Shown: positions 395-31,746 of the stretch, one piece after another
Layout: the number at the start of each line of letters is the position of its first letter
How positions within the stretch are numbered: position 1 is the first letter of the stretch
Assembly: GCA_034178705.1 (NCBI GenBank)
Contig: JAXFQY010000039.1
Coordinates: 18,623-82,622, forward strand
Reading direction: 5' to 3'
DNA length: 64,000 nucleotides
Source of the DNA: Eubacteriales bacterium
Lineage (GTDB): Bacteria; Bacillota; Clostridia; Oscillospirales; CAG-272
Program-made: the position numbers and the translations under genes
Notes under the pieces: model-generated
Seen by the model: the letters and a program-made list of their open reading frames with translations, nothing else
The model's database searches: none
What the model was told of the DNA's origin: nothing

Positions 395-961
395 TCAATA
401 GGTCGGCGTATCAAGCAGCCATTTTTCTCCGTCAAAACGCAGTGTCAGAACGGCATCCTCATCTTTTTCCCCGTTCGTTTCGGTTTCAATGCGGATTACC
501 ACCCGTTTGCTTCCGCTTTTTTCAATCGTCATGGTATCAAAAGAATAGGTTCTTTCCCCTGGGAGAATGGATTGGATATACCGATCCTGCATCAGCTGTC
601 CGAGGTCATCCTCGGTGAATCGCGGTAGAATGACGCCGACACTGTCTGTTATTCCGACAAACAACGTCTCAAAGATTCCCTCACAGTAGTCCGCCGTATA
701 GACAGCGCGTGCTGCCTCCTTCAGTTGATCGATCGTATCATATCTGCTTTTTTCTAAATCCACATAGCGGTAATCTGTTCCGGTAATCCCTTCCACCGTT
801 GGAAGTCCGTAGCCGAAAAAAATCTCGTTCAATTCCAGACTGTCGGTAATCAGTGCTTCGGCAATCGGCCTGATCTCTTCAAGAGTAGGTCCGCCGCAGG
901 AGGAAAACAGAATGGCCGTGCAGAGAAGAAACACACAAAAGAAAGCAAACTTAGCTTTCAT
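395..961 (-). CDS. Probable secreted lipoprotein, unknown function
   Basis: The 234-aa ORF (395..1099) is trimmed to the internal ATG at 961. This gives [25 protein letters not shown], a signal peptide ending in a lipobox-like Cys. The upstream part of the ORF overlaps the gyrA 3' end. With this start the overlap with the gyrA stop is only 11 nt. Confidence 0.6.
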
Positions 962-3509
962 TTCCGTTCTCCCCGGAATTTCCCGTATTCTCTCTGTTTT
1001 CAGTTTCCTTTGTCCCTGCTGTCGTTTCGCCGTCAGACAGAGCACTCTGCTCGGGGATTTCTTCTTGCTCCGGCTGATTTCCGTCGTGAACAACCGCAAA
1101 ATTGGAAATCACGGCATTCTCCGCTGTGCGCATGACAATAACACCGGCCGCGGAACGGCTGTACACCGGGATTTCATCCGCGTGTATACGGACAACCGTT
1201 CCGGTATCTGTAATCATCATAATGTCATCCTGCTCACCGACGGAAGCAATCCCGATCACCGGACCGGTTTTTTCGGTAATATTCTGACAGGTGACACCGT
1301 GCCCTCCACGATTTTTCATCTGGCGGAAATCGTCAAACGGTGTCCGCTTTCCGCATCCGCGCTCGGTTATGACAAGCAGACGTCGGTCGTCTGAGACAAG
1401 CGCAGCTCCGCAAACCGCATCCCCGTCTTCCAGGCGGATACCGATGACACCACGGGCGGTTCTTCCCATCGGACGGATTGTATCTCCACGGAAGCGCACG
1501 GCATTTCCCGAACGGGTCGCAATGACAAGCTCATCCTCATCCTCCATCTCTCCGGCATAGATCAGCTCGTCACCCTCATCCAACGAGAGGGCGCGCTTTC
1601 CGGTTTTTCTCTGATATTCGAATTCGCTCATCGGTGTGCGCTTGATAATGCCGTTTTTCGTAAGCATCAAAAGATATTTGTCCCCGAAACCGTTTACGGT
1701 AATCACACCGGAAAGCTTCTCCCCGTCTTCAAGCTCCAGCAGATTGCGGATGTTGGTTCCCTTTGCCGTTCTTCCTGCCTCCGGAATGAAATAAACCTTC
1801 TTGGTATATACCTTTCCTATGGAGGTAAAGAACATCATCAGCGAATGGCTGTCCGCCGTGACAACGTTCTCGATGAAGTCATCCTCCTTTGTCTGCATGC
1901 CGATAATTCCCTTTCCGCCACGGCGCTGGGCGGAATACGTATCGGCAGGCTGACGCTTGATGTATCCGGCATGCGTCATGGTTACAACACACCGATGCTT
2001 CGGAATCAGATCTTCCAGAACAATATCATCCTCGGATTCCACAATATCGGTCAGGCGCGGATCCCCGAACTTAGCCTTGATGGCCAGCAGCTCGTCCCGC
2101 ACAATGGAACGAACCTTTGTTTCGTCCCTGAGGATTTCTTCAAGCTCCGCGACAATACTCCGCAATTTTGCCAGTCTGTCCTCGATTTTCTGCCGTTCAA
2201 GTCCGGAAAGCTTTCCGAGCGTCATATCAACGATCGCCTGCGCCTGTGCCTCCGAAAGCGCAAACTCCGCCATAAGAGCTTCCCTTGCTGCCGGTATCGA
2301 CTCACTGTGCTTGATAATCTCAATGACACGGTCGATATTATCGATGGCGATTTTGTATCCCTCCAGAATATGCATCTCATGCAACGCTTTATCAAGGTCG
2401 AATTTTGTACGGCGCACAATAATTTCTTTCTGAAAGGAAATATATTGCTGAAGGATTTCCTTCAGGGAGAGAATCTTCGGTTCGCCGTTTACAATGGCAA
2501 GCATATTAACAGCAAAGGTATCCTGAAGCTGTGTATATTTATATAGCTGATTCAGTATCACCTGTCCGTTTGCATCTCTGCGGTATTCTATGACAATACG
2601 CATTCCCGCGCGTCCCGTCTCGTCACGCAGACCCGTGATTCCATCCACACGTTTTTCCTTGTGCAGATCCGCAATGCTTTTGACCAGCATTGCCTTATTG
2701 ACCGCATACGGGATTTCGGTTATGATAATACGATGCTTTTCCTCGTCAATCTGCGCGCGGGCGCGGACAGAAATATGCCCCTTTCCCGTCGCATATGCCG
2801 CATAAATGCCCGATGTTCCGTATATCGTTGCCTTTGTCGGAAAATCGGGTCCCTTGATATACTGCATGATCTCATTCAGATCCGCCTCCGGATTGTCAAG
2901 CAAACAGACAACCCCGTCGATGACCTCTCCAAGGTTGTGGGGCGGGATATTCGTCGCCATACCGACAGCGATACCGACCGAGCCGTTGACAAGCAGATTC
3001 GGAAAGCGCGAGGGAAGAACCGTCGGCTCCTTCAGCTTGTTGTCATAGTTCGGAACAAAGTCGACAACATTTTTTTCAATGTCCATCATCATATAGTCGG
3101 AGATTTTCGCAAGACGCGCCTCGGTATAACGGTAGGCAGCGGCACCGTCTCCGTCGACATTACCGAAGTTACCGTGTCCTTCCACCAGCGGATACCGGAG
3201 CGAGAAGGACTGAGCCATGCGAACCATCGATTGATAGACCGCGCTGTCCCCGTGCGGATGATACCGCCCGAGCACATTTCCGACGGTAGTTGCCGACTTG
3301 CGGAACGGCTTATCGCTTGTAAGGTGATCCTCATACATCGCGTAGAGAATGCGGCGCTGACCCGGCTTCATACCGTCCCGAACGTCAGGCAGAGCACGAC
3401 TTGTAATGACACTCATGGAGTAATCTATAAAAGACTTCTTTACCTCCGCCTCCATTGCGATGGGGACAATTTTCTGATTGGAATAGTCAAGCTCATGATT
3501 GTGTTCCAT
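951..3509 (-). CDS. gyrA: DNA gyrase subunit A
   Basis: 852-aa ORF. The N-terminus [35 protein letters not shown] and the catalytic-Tyr region [11 protein letters not shown] are typical of GyrA. It has a C-terminal beta-pinwheel region followed by an acidic tail. It lies directly downstream of gyrB. Confidence 0.97.
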
Positions 3510-3606
3510 TTATTCTTCCTTTTCCATTACCGGCAGACGAAGGATTCTTCACCTTCTTTTTGCCGCATTTCTCATCTTTCAACAAATAAAATTGGTATCT
3601 CTGATT

Positions 3607-3739
3607 TGTCGAAAAAAGTTTTCTAAAGAGGAAAACCGGCTTGGATCATCGGTTTCAACAGAGTTTTCAACAGGTTGTTGAAAACTTTTGAACAAGAGTT
3701 TTCAACAGATTGTCGAAAACTATTTTTTCTGTTGAGAAC
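3607..3739. promoter_or_regulatory. Cluster of eight TGTYGAAAAC / GTTTTCRACA 10-mers in the gyrB-gyrA spacer (candidate DnaA-box cluster or Spo0A-type operator array)
   Basis: Plus-strand copies: 3607-3616 tgtcgaaaaa, 3676-3685 tgttgaaaac, 3711-3720 tgtcgaaaac, 3730-3739 tgttgagaac. Reverse-orientation copies: 3651-3660 ggtttcaaca, 3663-3672 gttttcaaca, 3685-3694 cttttgaaca, 3698-3707 gttttcaaca. Positions 3663-3685 form a perfect 10-bp inverted repeat with a 3-bp spacer. Confidence 0.5.
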
Positions 3740-3740
3740 T

Positions 3741-5744
<2,004 letters not shown>

Positions 5745-6209: not shown

Positions 6210-7337
6210 TTAATTGATTTCAGTAAAAACACCGTTCTTGGCATGAATGATTTTACAGGAAGCAAGCCCTGCATCAGCCTCACAGGTGGTTATGATATAC
6301 TGTTTGTCTGCAACACGATCAAACAGATATTTTCTTCTTTCTGCGTCCAGTTCGCTTAAAACATCGTCAAAAAGAAAGACGGGATGCTCCCCGGTCAGCT
6401 CCCGGCAGATTTCTCCTTCCGCAAGCTTAAGGGAAAGCACCGCGGTTCTTTGTTGTCCCTGACTGCCCCACTGACGGAGAGGAACTCCGTTGATTTTCAG
6501 AATCAGATCATCGCGGTGAGGGCCGCGCTGCGTGGATCCTGCGGAAAGATCACGGTCAAGCCCCGCTTCCAGCAATCTGAGATACTCCTGCTCGCTATCC
6601 GCAAAATTGTGAGGATCCGGTACATCACAGGAATACTGAATACGCAGACGTTCGGTATTTTCGCTCATTTCCGACATAATAAACTCTGCATGCGGGGAAA
6701 GCTTTTCAATATATTCCGCCCGGCGCTGTGCAATTTTTGCCGCAAAACGGGCAAGCTGCGCATTCCATACCGGTATATTTTCCAATAATCTCTCCCTCTG
6801 AGCACCGGAAATCCCGGAAACGCCGATTTTTTTGATCAGTGCATTCCGATTTTCAAGCGCCATTGTATAGTTTCCGAGAAGATAGACATAATCGCGAGAA
6901 AGCTGAGAAATTGCGATATTCATAAATTCTCTTCTCTCGGAAGGAGAACCCTTTACAATACCGAGATGGTCCGGACAGAACAAAACAGCACGGAAATGGG
7001 AAATCATTTCAATATTCCGTTCCAGCTTAACACCGTTCAGATATCGTTTTGTTTTTTTATCCGTATGTTCAAGAAGAAGCTCTTCCTCTCTTTGTGCGTC
7101 AGTATACTCGTTCTTAACGGTAAAAAACGTATCCCCGCTTCGTATAAGCTCCCTGTCCGGAGTTCCGCGAAAACTTCTTCCCCGTGCAAAAATATAGATT
7201 GCTTCGAGAAGATTGGTCTTTCCCTGCGCATTTCTACCGAAGATAACATTGACTCCGGGCGAAAAACTGACTTCGGCATTCTCAATATTACGATAACTGC
7301 GCAGGGTCATTTTCCGGCAATACACGGCGTCAGTCAC
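6210..7337 (-). CDS. recF: DNA replication and repair protein RecF
   Basis: 375-aa ORF with Walker A GRNAQGKTNLLEAI, an SMC-like signature region SQGQQRT and Walker B LFDDVLSELD. It follows dnaN. An alternative start at 7310 (MTLRSYRNIE) would remove the 8-nt overlap with dnaN. Confidence 0.9.
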   Translation of the reverse strand: MTDAVYCRKMTLRSYRNIENAEVSFSPGVNVIFGRNAQGKTNLLEAIYIFARGRSFRGTPDRELIRSGDTFFTVKNEYTDAQREEELLLEHTDKKTKRYLNGVKLERNIEMISHFRAVLFCPDHLGIVKGSPSERREFMNIAISQLSRDYVYLLGNYTMALENRNALIKKIGVSGISGAQRERLLENIPVWNAQLARFAAKIAQRRAEYIEKLSPHAEFIMSEMSENTERLRIQYSCDVPDPHNFADSEQEYLRLLEAGLDRDLSAGSTQRGPHRDDLILKINGVPLRQWGSQGQQRTAVLSLKLAEGEICRELTGEHPVFLFDDVLSELDAERRKYLFDRVADKQYIITTCEADAGLASCKIIHAKNGVFTEIN

Positions 7338-8472
7338 TCAGTTTGACCGGCATCACAAGGAAAAACTGTTTTTTCTTTTCATCTTTCTCCGTGGGCATAA
7401 CATACATACTGGTGCGCGGTCCCTTTAGTTTCATTGTCACATTGTCGCAATCAAGGGCACGGAGAACATCAATCAGAAAACGGCAGGTAAAACCGATCTC
7501 CAGCTCCTCCCCACTGTATTCGCACGGCAGCTCATCGTTGATCTGCCCGGAAAGAGAGGTAGACGAAATTTTCAGAAGATTATCGGAAAAATGCAGACGC
7601 AGATGGCTGCGCGTGGAGCTGACACTCTTTTTTTCGGAAATCAGCGCCGCCCGCTCAAGACATTCGAGAAAGGCAACCCGATTGATTTTCACCGTAATCG
7701 GCATATCCCCCTGAATAATCCGCTCATAATCCAGGTATTTCATATCGATCAGGCGGGAGAAAAAGATCAGATCTCCAATGACAAATACAACATGCTTTTT
7801 TGCCGGCTTGATCGTCATCAGATCCTCCTCATCATCCGAGAGGATTTTCTGAAGCTCATTCAGGGACTTTCCGGGAATGATCATATTGATCTCACTGGGG
7901 AGATCGGCATTGATTTTCGTATAATACTCGCACTTGGAGAGCGTAAAGGTATTGCACGCTACCATTGTAAGAAGATTTTCCCGGATCTGAAGATATCCGC
8001 CGCACAGCTCGGGGTGGTTGCTGTCTGTCTGGGCAATCGAATGGGCGGTAGATCCCATTATCGTTTTCAGAATGCTTTGTTCGATTACAAATCCCCATTC
8101 CCCATCCAGTTCCGGGGGTGTCGGAAATTCCTTTCCGTTCAGCGCCCTCATCGTATAACAAACACGGTTGCACCGCAGATGTGCTGTCATTTTTTCATTG
8201 ACTGACAACTCAATCTCATTTTCCGGCATAACGCGCACATACTGATAAAAATCCTGGGCATTTACGATATAAGAACCCGGCTCGATGACCTGTGCGGCAA
8301 CATTTGCCCGGACTCCTTTATCCATATCGTAGGTCATAACACGGCATCGGCCGTCCTCAGATGCTTCAATTAATACCCCTTCAAGAGAGGTAAAGGTATT
8401 CTTGCTTGAAACACAACCCATTGCCGGGGTCAGCGCCGCAAGCAGCTTGACCTTATCAAAAATTATTTTCAT
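7330..8472 (-). CDS. dnaN: DNA polymerase III beta sliding clamp
   Basis: The 435-aa ORF is trimmed to the ATG at 8472 (MKIIFDKVKLLAALTP), which is preceded by an aaggag RBS. The product is 380 aa and ends in LVMPVKLSD, typical of DnaN. The discarded N-terminal extension is a translation of origin repeats (poly-Leu from CTG/CTA trinucleotides). Confidence 0.92.
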   Translation of the reverse strand: MKIIFDKVKLLAALTPAMGCVSSKNTFTSLEGVLIEASEDGRCRVMTYDMDKGVRANVAAQVIEPGSYIVNAQDFYQYVRVMPENEIELSVNEKMTAHLRCNRVCYTMRALNGKEFPTPPELDGEWGFVIEQSILKTIMGSTAHSIAQTDSNHPELCGGYLQIRENLLTMVACNTFTLSKCEYYTKINADLPSEINMIIPGKSLNELQKILSDDEEDLMTIKPAKKHVVFVIGDLIFFSRLIDMKYLDYERIIQGDMPITVKINRVAFLECLERAALISEKKSVSSTRSHLRLHFSDNLLKISSTSLSGQINDELPCEYSGEELEIGFTCRFLIDVLRALDCDNVTMKLKGPRTSMYVMPTEKDEKKKQFFLVMPVKLSD

Positions 8473-8546
8473 AAAATACTCCTTTAAGTATGATCGAATT
8501 TTTAAGAATGAACAACTTGAGACTGCTGTTTTTGGGATTGCTTTTC

Positions 8547-8574
8547 TGTAATATAGTGTAATAGATAATAAAAA
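8547..8574. other. AT-rich candidate DNA unwinding element
   Basis: tgtaatatagtgtaatagataataaaaa is 24/28 A/T. It lies immediately on the dnaN-proximal side of the trinucleotide array. Confidence 0.5.
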
Positions 8575-8592
8575 TAGCAGCAGTAGCAGTAG
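8566..8592 (-). repeat. DnaA-trio-like phased trinucleotide array
   Basis: The plus strand reads TAA TAA AAA TAG CAG CAG TAG CAG TAG, nine phased triplets with an invariant central A. It is followed by GGG (8593-8595) and two abutting CGTTGAA repeats (8597-8613). Confidence 0.55.
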
Positions 8593-8815
8593 GGGTCGTT
8601 GAAGCGTTGAAATGTATCGGGAAACCTTGAAAGACAAGCTGTGTAGGGTGTTGAAGAAAGAGTAGAAAAAAGAAAGATTTCGGATAGCTTCAACAGCGGG
8701 GAAAAATGCTTTCGCAAAAACTGTCGGGTAATACCGGTTTTCTTCAACAAAGTTTTGAACATTGACTGTTGAAAACTTTGAAAACTAAAGAAAAATAAAA
8801 TCGGTTATCGGTCAA

Positions 8816-10198
8816 TCAACCGCGGATTTCCGAGACAAGCTCCTTGATTTCATCTTCAAAAAGAGGGTCTCCCGCAATTTGCTCTTCAATCTTGGCAAGA
8901 CTGTGATGAATGGTTGCGTGGGATCTTCCGAACATATTTCCGATAGCGATCATGGAAAGATCGGTGAGGGAGCGAAGCAGATAGATGGCAACATTACGGG
9001 CATTTACGGTATTGGCAGCCTGACTTTTTCCTTTCAGCTCGGCAGCGGAAATGGAATATTTTCTGGCAACCGCTTCAATGATTTTATCGCTGACAAGATT
9101 CTGCGGCTCGCTTTCGGTAAGAAGATCGGAAATGGCGGCGCGGGCGGTTTCCAGCTGGATTCCGGTTCCGTCCAGAAAGGAAAGCGCCGCGATTTTCTTT
9201 ATGGCGCCCTCTACCTGACGAATATTGGATTTCAGGCGATCTGCCATATAGGTTACAACTTCGCTTGACAGTTCAATATGCAGATTTTTTGCCTTCTGTT
9301 TAATGATTGCCATGCGCAGTTCGATATCCGGAGGCTGAATATCCGCGATCATGCTTTGCTCAAATCGGGTACGGAGCCGCTCCTCAAGAGGATTGATATC
9401 CTTCGGGGGTTTATCGCTTGTAAAGATAATCTGCTTGTTATCCTCATAAAGAAAATTAAAAGTATGGAAGACCTCCTCCTGAACGGAAGTTTTATTCGCA
9501 ATAAACTGAATATCATCGATAATCAGAATATCAGCGCGGCGGAATTTTTCGCGGAATTCCGGTGTGCGCTTGAACTGAATCGCCTCAATAAGCTGATTTG
9601 TAAAATCCTCGCCGCTGATGTAAATCAGGGAGACATCCGGAAAACACCGCTCCACCATGTTTTTGATGGAATACATCAGATGCGTCTTTCCGAGACCGCT
9701 CGGACCGTAGATAAAAAGCGGATTGTACATGTCCCCGATATGGTCGTAATCCTTATCACCTGCATTGCTTGCCACAGCATAGCATGCCGCATAGGCAAGT
9801 TTGTTTGAGGAACCCTGTACAAAGTTCTCAAAGGTGAATTCTGCTGTTTTACTTCCCGGTATATTTCCGGGAAGGGAGCTGTTTTTCTCTTCTCGGCGAT
9901 TTTCTTCTTCCTCTCGGCGGGTAACCGTCTGCGCTGTCAGAGTCGGATCGCCGGTGAATTCAATTTTGATCCGGAAACCGAGAAGTCCTTCTATCGTTTC
10001 GGCAATTTCCTCTGCGTATTTTCCTTGTACGACTCCGCGTTTGAAATCATTCTCGATATAGAGAAGCACGCGGTTTTCATCCAGATCGAGAATCTTGCAG
10101 TCCTCAAACCAAAGACCGACAAAGGTGGAGCTGTATTTTTCACGCAGCTTTTCAACAACAAGCTGCCAGATTCCGCTCAGATCCCCGGAGGCATTCAT
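8816..10198 (-). CDS. dnaA: Chromosomal replication initiator DnaA
   Basis: 460-aa ORF with Walker A YGPSGLGKTHL, Walker B ILIIDDIQF, sensor/box VII region RLRTRFEQSMIADIQPPD and a C-terminal HTH domain. The domain IV signature is atypical (FGRSHATIHHS instead of [9 protein letters not shown].H). Confidence 0.95.
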   Translation of the reverse strand: MNASGDLSGIWQLVVEKLREKYSSTFVGLWFEDCKILDLDENRVLLYIENDFKRGVVQGKYAEEIAETIEGLLGFRIKIEFTGDPTLTAQTVTRREEEENRREEKNSSLPGNIPGSKTAEFTFENFVQGSSNKLAYAACYAVASNAGDKDYDHIGDMYNPLFIYGPSGLGKTHLMYSIKNMVERCFPDVSLIYISGEDFTNQLIEAIQFKRTPEFREKFRRADILIIDDIQFIANKTSVQEEVFHTFNFLYEDNKQIIFTSDKPPKDINPLEERLRTRFEQSMIADIQPPDIELRMAIIKQKAKNLHIELSSEVVTYMADRLKSNIRQVEGAIKKIAALSFLDGTGIQLETARAAISDLLTESEPQNLVSDKIIEAVARKYSISAAELKGKSQAANTVNARNVAIYLLRSLTDLSMIAIGNMFGRSHATIHHSLAKIEEQIAGDPLFEDEIKELVSEIRG

Positions 10199-10235
10199 GC
10201 GGGCATTCTCCTTTATATATATAATAAGTATCTAA

Positions 10236-10264
10236 ATTATATCATAGTATCGGATATATTTCAA
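10236..10264 (-). promoter_or_regulatory. Predicted sigma-A promoter of dnaA
   Basis: The minus strand reads TTGAAA (10264-10259), a 17-nt spacer, then TATAAT (10241-10236), with TG at the extended -10 position. It lies about 40 nt upstream of the dnaA ATG. Confidence 0.5.
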
Positions 10265-10347
10265 GGGATTATGGGAAAAAAGCAATTTCAGAAAAACAGG
10301 GAGAATTCTTTTCTGTCGGGGGTTTTGGAAAAACCCTGTCTGCCCCC

Positions 10348-10376
10348 TTGAATTGTTGCATCTTTCATGTTATACT
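10348..10376 (+). promoter_or_regulatory. Predicted sigma-A promoter of the sugar-kinase gene
   Basis: TTGAAT (10348-10353), a 17-nt spacer, then TATACT (10371-10376), about 50 nt upstream of the ATG at 10428. Confidence 0.4.
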
Positions 10377-10427
10377 ACCGTTGAATCAGTCTGTACATAT
10401 AAAAATTAAACAGGAAGGATTATAGAT

Positions 10428-11711
10428 ATGAACGCACTCCAATTGGCTGAATATATCCGGGCAGGAAAGGCAGACGCAAAGCTGAATGCGCTTTACGGCA
10501 AAAATCTTGACAGGCAAAGAAAAAGATATGCCGATGCAGCAGAAAAATTTGCCTCGCTTTACGGGGCTGAAAAGGATGCTTTTTTCTTCTCGGTTCCGGG
10601 GAGAAGCGAAATATCCGGAAATCATACCGACCATAACCGCGGAAAGGTTCTTGCGGGGGCCATTGATCTTGACATAATCGCTGTCGCAAGCCGCACGGAT
10701 GATGGCGCCGTACGTGTCCGCAGTGAGGGATACAGTGAGGATCGCGTGGAGCTTTCCGATATCAGTGAGCCGAAAAAGGAGAACTTTTTCAAATCCCGCG
10801 GACTGCTTGCAGGAGTACTTGCCGGTTTGCAGAAAAACGGTCATGAGGTTTGTTCCTTTTGTGCTTATACGACGAATGATGTTCACAAAGGAAGCGGGCT
10901 CTCCTCTTCTGCCGCATTTGAGGTGATGATCGGAAATATTGAAAATCATTTGGCAAACGGCGGAAAAATCGGAAATCCGGAGATTGCGAAAATTTCTCAG
11001 TTTGCGGAAAATGTATATTTCGGAAAGCCCTGCGGTTTGATGGATCAGATGGCTTGTGCCGTCGGCGGCTTTGTTGCGATTGATTTTGAAGATCCGCAGA
11101 ATCCGGTAATTGAGTCGTTGGATTTTGATCTGTCCGGTCACGGATACTCCCTTTGCATTGTCAATACCGGCGGAAATCATGCCGATCTCAACGAGGATTA
11201 TGCATCGGTTCCGGCCGAAATGAAAAAGATTGCAGCGTATTACGGGAAGGACGCATTGCGCGGATTGACAGAGGAGCAGCTGATTTCCGACATGCCGGTT
11301 CTTCGCAAAGCGGCAGGGGATCGTGCCATTCTCCGTGCTATGCATTTTGTTGCCGAAAACAAGCGTGTTGAAAAACAGACAGAAGCGCTGCGCCGCGGTG
11401 ACCTTGATACGTTTTTTGCCGGTGTGATTGAAAGCGGAAACAGCAGTTTCAAATATCTCCAGAATGTTTATACTGTGAAAAATGTAGAGGAACAGGGACT
11501 GTCCCTTGCACTTTGCGTAACCGAATATGTAACCCGTGGCTGGGGCGGTGCATTCCGTGTACACGGCGGTGGTTTTGCCGGTACGATTCAGGCATTTATT
11601 CCGACAGAAAAAGTCGAAGAATATACAAACATCATGAATTCCGTCTTCGGACAGAATGCCTGCGCCGCGCTGAAGGTTCGTCCCGAGGGAGCAATCCTTG
11701 TGAATCTGTAA
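10428..11711 (+). CDS. Galactokinase-family GHMP sugar kinase
   Basis: 427-aa ORF. PGRSEISGNHTDHNRGKVLAGAIDLD matches the galactokinase signature region, and GSGLSSSAAFEV is the GHMP ATP-binding motif. The exact sugar specificity cannot be determined from the sequence. Confidence 0.8.
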   Translation: MNALQLAEYIRAGKADAKLNALYGKNLDRQRKRYADAAEKFASLYGAEKDAFFFSVPGRSEISGNHTDHNRGKVLAGAIDLDIIAVASRTDDGAVRVRSEGYSEDRVELSDISEPKKENFFKSRGLLAGVLAGLQKNGHEVCSFCAYTTNDVHKGSGLSSSAAFEVMIGNIENHLANGGKIGNPEIAKISQFAENVYFGKPCGLMDQMACAVGGFVAIDFEDPQNPVIESLDFDLSGHGYSLCIVNTGGNHADLNEDYASVPAEMKKIAAYYGKDALRGLTEEQLISDMPVLRKAAGDRAILRAMHFVAENKRVEKQTEALRRGDLDTFFAGVIESGNSSFKYLQNVYTVKNVEEQGLSLALCVTEYVTRGWGGAFRVHGGGFAGTIQAFIPTEKVEEYTNIMNSVFGQNACAALKVRPEGAILVNL

Positions 11712-29648: not shown

Positions 29649-31746
29649 TGGTCAAACCGAAATATACATCAAAAATATCTTTTGCAACCGCCCCGAGCGG
29701 GGTTCCGCTTGCACCGTGCTCCACTACGGCAGCAACAACAATTTCCGGAACCTCCAATGGAGCAAAGGCAACAAAGGTTCCGTTGTCGCTGCGCGTTTTT
29801 GTTACCTGAGCGGTACCGGTTTTCCCGCCCATGGTAATGGGATAATCCTCAAAAATCCGCGCGGTTGATCCGTTTTCCGGGACGTTTTTCATCGCATTTT
29901 TGACAACATCCACAACTTCGCGAGAAAGGGAAAGCGTACTGATTGCCTCCGGTTTTACGGAGAAAAGTGCATTTCCGGTTGCATAGTCCACGGAGGAGTG
30001 GAGAAGATGGGCGCGATAGCGTGTTCCGCAGTTCGTCAGGCTGGAAAGGTAAACCGCAAGCTGCAGAGGCGTGAAGGTGTTGTAGGATTGCCCGATGGCG
30101 GCCTGGAGCGTATCGCCGGGCCCCCAAGAGCCGAGTCCGCTGCTTTCTACATAATCCGGTCCCGCCAGAATCCCTGTTTTCTCCGGAAGCTCGATTCCCG
30201 TCGGTTCCCCCAGTCCGAAGCCCCGGTCATAATAGTTCAGACGCTCGATCGTGAGCAATCTTCCGCATTCGAAAAAGAAAATATTGCAGGAGTTATGGAT
30301 TGCATCGACAACCGTCTGCGGTCCGTGTACCAGCCCGTAGGTGAGATAATACCAGCAACGGGGCTGATAGTCTTTGTAATACGTGTAAACGCCGTTATCC
30401 ACAATGACGGTATCGGGTGTGATAACCCCTTCGGAAAGCGCAGCGGCAGCGGTTCCGGGTTTGAAAGTAGATCCGGGAGGATAAAGCCCGTTCAGGGCGC
30501 GGTTGACAAGCGGAGCACGCTCGTCCTTGATCAAATCCTCCAGATCCTCAACATAGGTCGAAAGATCAAAGGTAGGATAGGAGGCAATTGCGAAAATTTC
30601 TCCGGTGCTCGGAGAAATGGCAACACAGGCTCCCGCATCCGCATCCTCTCCGTCAAGGGTGCCGGGCTTGGTTTTTCCCTCTTCGGCTATTTTTTCAATA
30701 TTCCGCGCAAGGGAATCCTCTGCGGCAATCTGGATATTGATGTCAATTGTGAGCCGGATATCCTGTCCTGCGACAGGCTCGGTTTTCCAGTATTTTTGGA
30801 TAATGTTTCCTTTTTCGTCTTCAACAATGACCTCAACGCCATCCGTACCGTGCAGATAGCTTTCAAAAGCTTCCTCGGCGCCGGAAATGCCCACCTTGGC
30901 ATTCAGCGGGTAGCCGAGCGCAAGATACTTTTCCTTGGTTTCTGCCGTAATATCTCCGACACGCCCGAGAATATGTGAGGCATATCCGGGGTAGTAATAA
31001 ACCCGCTGGGCGCGCTTGTCGGAAAAAATCCCGCGCTGTCCGGTTTCCGAAACCGCGGTGAGAAACCGCATGGACACGTCCTCCGCAATCAGATAGCTGT
31101 TTGTCGGAGAAAAACGGATATAATCCAGTGAAAAACGGCGCTCCAGCAGAATTTGCGTATCGTCAGCGGAGTAAAGCGCTTCTCCTGTTTCTTCCGCGAT
31201 GAGTTTATAACGCAGAAGAAGATAGGAGCGAAGCTCCGGCGCCGTAATCGACTCCGCCTGAGCCTGCCGTTCCTCCTCCGATTTCTTTTTATCTCCGTAA
31301 CCGAGTTCGATCAGGAGACGGACAAGCTTTTCCCGCTTTTTTCCGTCGGAGGCGTAGTCCTCGGTGAACACCGGAGCGTCCGCCGTGCCGGACAGCGGAT
31401 ATTCGGGTTCTGTCAATTTCTCGGATTCGCCGCAATCGGCGGCAAGATGGATTACCGTCAGAATCGTCCGGTTGAAGCCGACGGCATCCGCAGGAATCTC
31501 CCCGTAGTCAAGCAAAAGATTATAGGAATAGCGGTTTCCCACAAGCAGCACGCCGTTGCGGTCGTAAATTTCCCCGCGCTGCACCGGAACCGTTACGGTT
31601 CGGGTATAGGTTTTTTCCGAAACATAATCATAAAGATCGGCGGAAACCAATTGCAGATTGACAAGACGCGCGAAAAAAACAAGGCAGACGGCGACAGGGA
31701 GGGCGCCGAGAAAGAAATAACGGAAGGGATGCGTTCGTTTTCTCAT
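29623..31746 (-). CDS. mrdA: Penicillin-binding protein 2 (elongation-specific transpeptidase)
   Basis: 707 aa. N-terminal TM anchor, then the SxxK (STFKP), SxN (SCN) and KTG (KTGTA) motifs. It lies directly downstream of mreBCD. Confidence 0.9.
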   Translation of the reverse strand: MRKRTHPFRYFFLGALPVAVCLVFFARLVNLQLVSADLYDYVSEKTYTRTVTVPVQRGEIYDRNGVLLVGNRYSYNLLLDYGEIPADAVGFNRTILTVIHLAADCGESEKLTEPEYPLSGTADAPVFTEDYASDGKKREKLVRLLIELGYGDKKKSEEERQAQAESITAPELRSYLLLRYKLIAEETGEALYSADDTQILLERRFSLDYIRFSPTNSYLIAEDVSMRFLTAVSETGQRGIFSDKRAQRVYYYPGYASHILGRVGDITAETKEKYLALGYPLNAKVGISGAEEAFESYLHGTDGVEVIVEDEKGNIIQKYWKTEPVAGQDIRLTIDINIQIAAEDSLARNIEKIAEEGKTKPGTLDGEDADAGACVAISPSTGEIFAIASYPTFDLSTYVEDLEDLIKDERAPLVNRALNGLYPPGSTFKPGTAAAALSEGVITPDTVIVDNGVYTYYKDYQPRCWYYLTYGLVHGPQTVVDAIHNSCNIFFFECGRLLTIERLNYYDRGFGLGEPTGIELPEKTGILAGPDYVESSGLGSWGPGDTLQAAIGQSYNTFTPLQLAVYLSSLTNCGTRYRAHLLHSSVDYATGNALFSVKPEAISTLSLSREVVDVVKNAMKNVPENGSTARIFEDYPITMGGKTGTAQVTKTRSDNGTFVAFAPLEVPEIVVAAVVEHGASGTPLGAVAKDIFDVYFGLTNADEENAE

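Follow-up and report, generated by a model that had tools for sequence, protein, structure and literature searches.

DnaA contact residues and origin DnaA boxes have probably changed together in a clade of uncultured Oscillospirales

Does a DnaA protein that has lost several of its base-contacting residues still read the usual DnaA box, or have protein and box changed together? This question is raised by the dnaA gene on a 64-kb stretch of contig JAXFQY010000039.1 (the whole stretch is called the window here) from an uncultured Oscillospirales bacterium of the gut or rumen. In the dnaA-dnaN and gyrB-gyrA spacers of the window, boxes read (G)TTTT[C/G/A][A/G]ACA instead of TT[A/T]TNCACA, and the comparison with related genomes makes it probable that the window DnaA reads its box differently and that its contact residues and the boxes at the origin have changed together. 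The parts of the window on which this reading rests are:

8816-10198, minus strand: dnaA, 460 amino acids, domains I, III and IV (TIGR00362 and Pfam)
8900-9028, minus strand: contact region of domain IV, basic loop plus helix-turn-helix, codons K391-S433 (HMMER and MAFFT alignments)
8473-8815: dnaA-dnaN spacer, inferred oriC (GC-skew minimum at 8482 and a cluster of variant boxes)

The open reading frame at 8816-10198 encodes a genuine DnaA. It scored 444.5 bits against TIGR00362, above the cutoff of 343.9, Pfam assigned DnaA_N, Bac_DnaA and Bac_DnaA_C (the last with 72.9 bits), and the Walker A (GxxGxGKT) and Walker B (DD) motifs are invariant across the DnaA alignment A1. When an AlphaFold2 model of the protein (pLDDT 85.6) was compared with the PDB using Foldseek, the best match was 8BTG, the unwinding complex of B. 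subtilis, and 1L8Q and 2HCB were also retrieved. Foldseek confirmed the fold without a residue-level alignment, and the structure-guided check of the register was made with the helix boundaries of the AlphaFold2 model.

The last 104 residues were aligned with HMMER to the PDB chains 1J1V (E. coli), 3PVP (M. tuberculosis), 8BTG (B. subtilis), 2HCB and 1L8Q (both Aquifex), and the window DnaA was aligned with 120 neighbours using MAFFT. All of these alignments gave one common register, in which a single Gly is the only gap. Contact positions are named by E. coli DnaA numbering and residues of the window DnaA by their own codons, with the following correspondence (codon coordinates on the minus strand):

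K397 in E. coli, K391 in the window
R398 in E. coli, S392 in the window
R399 in E. coli, Q393 in the window (codon 9020-9022)
S400 in E. coli, A394 in the window
R401 in E. coli, A395 in the window
R405 in E. coli, N399 in the window
R407 in E. coli, R401 in the window
P423 in E. coli, I417 in the window (codon 8948-8950)
R432 in E. coli, R425 in the window
D433 in E. coli, S426 in the window (codon 8921-8923)
H434 in E. coli, H427 in the window (codon 8918-8920)
T435 in E. coli, A428 in the window (codon 8915-8917)
T436 in E. coli, T429 in the window
H439 in E. coli, H432 in the window (codon 8903-8905)

Base-specific contacts have been reported for R399, P423, D433, H434, T435 and H439 (PMC2533591; PMC7561715), with the recognition helix reading TnCACA and R399 reading TTA (PMC5742627). 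In the window DnaA these six positions are occupied by Q, I, S, H, A and H, respectively, which means that four of the six residues that an E. coli-type reader of the canonical box would possess are substituted. A first-pass annotation of the window, made by eye, had proposed that domain IV is altered at base-contacting positions, and both HMMER and MAFFT bear this out (R398/R399 to S/Q, P423I, D433S and T435A). It was also right in stating that the KRR patch containing Arg399 is replaced, as the register is ungapped there and R398/R399 correspond to S392/Q393, and that His434 and His439 are retained as H427 and H432. No alternative gapped alignment brings back R399, P423, D433 or T435, and in the AlphaFold2 model the loop comprises residues 390-394 and the recognition helix residues 427-443, which matches helix 434-451 of E. 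coli in the alignment register (PMC5742627). Three differences from its list are present but not diagnostic: the single-Gly gap is real, but M. tuberculosis too reads FGRDHTT; Ile at position 423 is found in Aquifex as well; and many neighbours whose boxes are ordinary carry Ala or Ser at position 435.

Turning to the DNA, the canonical box had been said to be absent from the spacers flanking dnaA, and this holds even with a mismatch allowed: no sequence within one mismatch of TTATCCACA was found in the dnaA-dnaN spacer, in the spacer upstream of dnaA (10199-10427) or in the gyrB-gyrA spacer. In the whole window, exact TTATCCACA occurs once, at 30395 inside an open reading frame, and oriC shows no cluster of TTWTNCACA boxes with C at position 6 of the kind that an E. 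coli-type origin would have. The 9-mer that is enriched is TTTTCAACA. Six exact copies against an expectation of about 0.5 had been claimed for it, a count that has to be revised to nine exact copies against a mean of 1.07 in shuffled sequences; nine copies were reached in none of 100 dinucleotide-preserving shuffles. Four of the nine are intergenic, as had been proposed (three in the gyrB-gyrA and one in the dnaA-dnaN spacer), but the other five lie inside long open reading frames. If one mismatch is permitted, 46 matches are obtained in the window versus 23.2 expected from the shuffles, and 13 of the 46 fall within the 576 bp of the dnaA-dnaN and gyrB-gyrA spacers (binomial, 2e-16), nine at 3576-3738 and four at 8649-8775. 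Could this enrichment simply be due to chance, given the composition of T-rich spacers? The spacers are indeed AT-rich (57-78%), but the observed counts were not reached in any shuffle, and box order, spacing and orientation are kept in genomes whose DnaAs are 55-67% identical. Shuffles and cross-genome conservation thus refute the chance explanation, to which we give practically no weight.

One exact copy of TTTTCAACA, at 10149-10157, falls on codons 14-17 of dnaA itself, some 45 bp into the gene from its start codon; it may serve autoregulation or simply be a coincidence of the coding sequence.

Metagenomes of rumen, hindgut and faeces supplied the closest relatives of the window organism; these are uncultured Oscillospirales whose DnaAs show the 55-67% identity mentioned above, and eleven related loci from uncultured Oscillospirales carry the window-type substitutions. 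In the DnaAs of this clade, residues 398-399 are S/A-Q except in P0008 (R399 kept, D433T), residues 406-408 are ARN or PRN, and residues 432-436 read R-[S/T/K]-H-[S/A/T/P]-T. De novo counting of 9-mers with 1-mismatch neighbourhoods worked in controls, where it yielded TTATCCACA or TTTTCCACA. In the clade, as box positions 5 and 6 vary, A/T-rich words drowned the signal, and the counting was replaced by a pattern fixed at seven positions. The clade set comprised 39 boxes matching TT[A/T]TNNACA from the dnaA-dnaN and gyrB-gyrA spacers of eight genomes, and the outgroup set comprised 96 boxes from Oscillospirales with D433. Base counts for the two sets were:

Position -1: clade G 29 (of 39); outgroup G 41 (of 96)
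Position 3: clade T 39; outgroup T 82, A 14
Position 5: clade C 21, G 11, A 6, T 1; outgroup C 84
Position 6: clade A 23, G 14, T 2, C 0; outgroup C 65, A 27, G 3, T 1

The pairs at positions 5-6 in the clade were CG (12), GA (11), CA (7), AA (5), CT (2), TG (1) and AG (1). C at position 6 is therefore found in 0/39 boxes of the clade versus 65/96 of the outgroup (Fisher test, 5e-15, kinship being ignored), and at orthologous sites the outgroups with D433 carry TTTTCCACA. It had been suggested that relatives with the same DnaA variant might share the motif, and the survey agrees with this, as the loci with the DnaA substitutions show GTTTT[C/G/A][A/G]ACA boxes; the proposed box TGTYGAAAAC (equivalent to GTTTTCRACA) comes near to the consensus derived from the 39 boxes. 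Judged from these counts, it is essentially position 6 of the box that has changed, C/A having given way to A/G, and position 5 is relaxed.

Which of the substituted residues goes along with this base? For 98 loci with a definable dnaA-dnaN spacer, the six commonest 9-mers of each locus were taken as box counts:

Residue 433 is D: 79 loci, 69 with at least one C6 box; 176 C6 boxes versus 95 non-C6 boxes
Residue 433 is S, T, K or N: 17 loci, none with a C6 box; 0 C6 boxes versus 43 non-C6 boxes

Natural variants separate the residues further. Locus L074 has R399Q with D433 kept and still possesses TGTGGAAAA, beside TTTTCAACA and TTATCAACA. The reverse combination, R399 kept with D433S (KSHSTVHHS), is present in L082, an Acutalibacteraceae metagenome-assembled genome (MAG) with a DnaA 39% identical to that of the window, and its boxes (8288-8625) are TTTTAAACA, TTTTGAACA and TTCGACA, none with C at position 6. 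In L081, L086 and L087, D433N is combined with H434Y (RNYSTVIPS), and both spacers hold only TTTTCAACA and TTTTAAACA. By these variants and the 98-locus counts, it is residue 433 that goes along with base 6; P423, T435 and the Gly do not, and R399Q by itself is insufficient.

A different group of Oscillospirales DnaAs, whose recognition helix reads RDYATIH(A/T)(S/A) (H434Y, T435A, H439A/T), makes up about 40% of the best 120 matches. Exact TTTTCCATA occurs in their dnaA-dnaN spacers five times in L069 (9381-9890), four times in L071 (8381-8890) and seven times in L072 (8390-8855), where the trio-adjacent box is one of the seven. A second re-specification that arose independently, with C at position 8 replaced by T, is suggested by this. 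Also, none of the 109 non-clade neighbours P0012-P0120 has His at the position of H439 (Ser in 70, Ala in 32) and their boxes keep C at position 8, for which reason H439 would not be required for C at position 8 in Oscillospirales; in the window clade H439 is kept. In one MAG, RGIG6466 (JAFXJH01), two contigs carry dnaA (L008 and L015), of which one is of the clade type on a 1.8-kb contig and the other is of the RDHSTIISS type and followed by dnaN. Bin contamination is the most likely explanation, and two initiators in one genome may be another.

The genes around the variant boxes are:

7330-8472, minus strand: dnaN, 3' of dnaA and on the same strand
6210-7337, minus strand: recF, after dnaN
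3741-5681, minus strand: gyrB, after recF
951-3509, minus strand: gyrA, after gyrB

The gene order dnaA-dnaN-recF-gyrB-gyrA is located at the GC-skew switch, a context that identifies the gene as dnaA, and the cumulative GC-skew minimum of the window (8482) lies within the dnaA-dnaN spacer. Gene order and skew minimum together mark the window as the region of the chromosomal origin. Within the dnaA-dnaN spacer, the following elements were recognized:

8741-8785, read on the minus strand: distal box group with GTTTTCAAAG, TTTTCAACA (8767-8775), TGTTCAAAA (8753-8761) and TGTTGAAGA (8741-8749)
8687-8695 and 8649-8657: further boxes
8597-8613, minus strand: tandem boxes adjoining the trios, ATTTCAACG (8605-8613) and GCTTCAACG (8597-8605), 8 bp apart
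8593-8596: GC patch ACCC between tandem boxes and trios
8563-8592, minus strand: DnaA-trio array CTA CTG CTA CTG CTG CTA TTT TTA TTA TCT
8546-8577: AT-rich stretch (AT 72-75% in 40-bp windows), a probable unwinding element that overlaps the distal trios

On the plus strand the trios read 3'-GAT GAC GAT...-5', with a central A in all ten, and they begin 12 bp after the better tandem box; across more than 2000 origins the spacing between box and trios peaks at 10-13 bp (PMC8287927). A basal unwinding system has been defined as one or two boxes upstream of at least three central-A trios, separated from them by no more than 16 bp, with an AT-rich region next (PMC8287927), and this is the layout found at the window origin, provided that the variant box is accepted. 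The same layout is conserved in 11 clade loci and kept in every related locus examined (L001-L007, L065, L073 and L077), and outgroups show the same tandem arrangement with ordinary boxes, for example TTATCCACA-tATCCACAg-gcc-CTACTACTA in L041. Their position, at the usual spacing in front of the trios, at the GC-skew minimum and in a layout shared by relatives and by outgroups with ordinary boxes, identifies the variant 9-mers as the DnaA boxes of the window organism. The spacer upstream of dnaA, which is divergent from a galactokinase-like gene (10428-11711), contains no box within one mismatch and no sign of a Bacillus-type upstream cluster or of dnaA autoregulation sites, and a bipartite origin flanking dnaA was dropped on that ground.

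A second group of boxes is located about 5 kb from oriC:

3576-3738, in the gyrB-gyrA spacer (3510-3740): nine boxes within one mismatch, at 3576+, 3607-, 3652+, 3664+, 3676-, 3686+, 3699+, 3711- and 3730-

The orthologous cluster, alike in order and spacing, is found in L004 (14931-15023), L005-7, L065 and L073, and in the outgroups L067 (14433-14546), L012 and L020 it is present as TTTTCCACA. This cluster affords the clearest comparison, and part of its alignment reads:

Outgroup L067 (DnaA KKR...SRDHTTILSS): TTTTCCACA ggc TGTGGAAAA cgc TGTGGAAAt
Clade member L065: TTTTCGACA ggc TGTTCAAAA ctc TGTTGAAAt
Window: TTTTCGACA atc TGTTGAAAA ctct TGTTCAAAA g TTTTCAACA acc TGTTGAAAA ctc TGTTGAAAc

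Order, orientation and 3-bp gaps are preserved among the three. The cluster is kept across Oscillospirales regardless of box type and may serve gyrA control, DnaA titration or as a second origin module.

The 0A box bound by Spo0A has the consensus TGTCGAA with a conserved C4-G5, and TGTCGAAAA, a frequent variant (3607-3615 and 3711-3719 in the window, and in clade loci), contains a perfect copy of it. Together with the fact that two box pairs of the gyrB-gyrA cluster form inverted repeats with a 3-bp gap, this raises the question of whether the repeated word is an operator of another protein, either Spo0A (TGTCGAA being the complement of TTCGACA) or a dimeric regulator reading 21-bp palindromes TTTTCRACA-N3-TGTYGAAAA. 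However, the outgroups have TTTTCCACA or TGTGGAAAA at these sites, and single, directly repeated boxes sit 12-13 bp ahead of the DnaA-trios. For Spo0A in particular, the freely varying positions 5 and 6 are the C-G that defines a 0A box, and what stays invariant corresponds to a DnaA box. An operator of another protein is thus very improbable. Identity with the 0A box was rejected, since the equivalents of C4-G5 are the only variable positions of the clade boxes. DnaA boxes and 0A boxes may nevertheless be the same sites in the window clade, and through the 0A overlap in TGTCGAAAA sporulation control may be coupled more tightly to initiation than in Bacillus.

With the boxes placed at the origin, protein and DNA can be compared position by position. 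Box positions 1-4 and 7-9 are kept, which matches the retention of R407, R432, H434, T436 and H439, and the disappearance of C from position 6 corresponds to the missing Asp433 (Ser in the window; Ser, Thr or Lys in relatives). We infer that the window DnaA prefers the variant boxes and that the change of D433 would be the cause. As a possible mechanism, C or A at position 6 would donate a hydrogen bond, through its exocyclic amino group, to the carboxylate of Asp433 in ordinary DnaA, and this would be the reason why D433 lineages have both bases there; with Ser or Thr at 433, a purine would be favoured instead. The minor-groove Arg399 is lost along with the change, and the uniform T tract that forms the 5' part of the box is probably what makes its loss tolerable. 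This reading predicts that D433S shifts position 6 from C/A to A/G.

Alternatively, specificity might be unchanged or merely weakened, with TTTTCCACA still the best-bound sequence, the substitutions neutral or affinity-lowering, and the origins employing sub-optimal boxes in the manner of the low-affinity sites of E. coli and Caulobacter. The coexistence of A6 and C6 boxes in D433 relatives, where ordinary DnaA evidently tolerates A, would fit with this, as would the retained H434, T436, H439 and R407. It is more difficult to reconcile with it that C6 is missing from all clade boxes and from the 17 loci without D433, that G at position 6 rises to 14/39 in the clade versus 3/96 in the outgroup, that orthologous sites changed their base while order and spacing stayed, and that the trio-adjacent box, normally the best match (PMC8287927), lacks C6 too. 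On balance, we regard an unchanged or weakened specificity as unlikely.

Several points nevertheless weigh against a DnaA with altered box recognition. The 98-locus counts rest on only the six commonest 9-mers per locus, D433 has been lost in only three independent lineages, and the statistics ignore phylogeny. Also, A at position 6 (TTTTCAACA, TTATCAACA) is common together with D433 (27/96) and is dominant in L090 and L015, and for this reason the shift at position 6 is a matter of degree. The assignment of the Asp433 contact to position 6 is itself inferred, and as the data cover 64 kb of the genome, a second, canonical DnaA may be encoded elsewhere.

Taking the variants together, one may tentatively ask whether Oscillospirales have undergone several independent and recent re-specifications of the DnaA helix-turn-helix and its box, a possibility that falls short of the probability we attach to the window clade by itself. 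Such a natural recognition code would pair D433S/T (window clade and one Acutalibacteraceae MAG) with TTTT[C/G/A][A/G]ACA, D433N plus H434Y with TTTTCAACA only, and H434Y, T435A, H439A/T with TTTTCCATA.

If altered recognition by the window DnaA is the true reading, the clade offers an instance from nature of co-evolution between a protein and the DNA that it targets. Recognition of the DnaA box is commonly regarded as near-universal; in the present case D433 and R399 vary among close relatives, whose orthologous boxes differ at one base. Tools that seed on TTATCCACA, such as Ori-Finder by default and searches for basal unwinding systems, would presumably under-score the origins of a large group of gut and rumen Clostridia.

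The reference layout for the window origin is the basal unwinding system of B. subtilis, with boxes 6 and 7, trios and an AT-rich region (PMC6669920; PMC8287927; cryo-EM structure 8BTG). Like oriC of B. subtilis, the window has, between dnaA and dnaN, tandem boxes, a GC patch and at least six central-A trios on the 3'-GAT-5' strand, with a 12-bp spacer and then an AT-rich stretch. Unlike there, its boxes are of the TTCAACG type, two to three mismatches away from the clade consensus and at least four from TTATCCACA. The gyrB-gyrA spacer, with nine boxes in 163 bp, resembles secondary clusters outside oriC such as those of B. subtilis or datA of E. coli, although its location is not among the eight cluster sites described for B. 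subtilis (PMC2533591).

Compared with the canonical DnaA and box of E. coli and B. subtilis (TTATCCACA, relaxed TTWTNCACA; 1J1V), the window system shares the protein family, domain layout, helix-turn-helix, the residues R407, R432, H434, T436 and H439, and a 9-mer with T1, T2, T4, A7, C8 and A9. It differs in the changes R398/R399 to S/Q, P423I, D433S and T435A and in clade boxes with A/G and never C at position 6, C/G/A at position 5 and always T at position 3. Lineage-specific DnaA boxes are already known as a general phenomenon, for example TTTTCCACA in cyanobacteria, a TTCAC core in Epsilonproteobacteria and the 12-mer AAACCTACCACC in Thermotoga (PMC10225481; PMC5043019), and in the latter two groups box drift goes along with changes in helix 5 (PMC5043019; PMC7561715). 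R399 was kept in all epsilonproteobacterial sequences examined (PMC5043019), and DnaA contact residues have been stated in a review to be conserved in all Firmicutes (PMC7561715). The box TT(T/A)TCAACA proposed for mollicutes has A at position 6, as window-clade boxes also have (PMC3322544); in a limited literature search on TTTTCAACA with DnaA, this phytoplasma/mollicute proposal alone turned up, and a limited search on DnaA boxes of Oscillospirales found nothing relevant and no description of a change linking D433 and box position 6. New, then, are a Firmicutes clade without R399 and D433, its consensus TTTT[C/G/A][A/G]ACA and the site-by-site covariation. In contrast to the earlier lineage-specific boxes, the change described here lies within Firmicutes, involves the highly conserved D433 in addition to R399, and can be followed from one close relative to another at orthologous sites.

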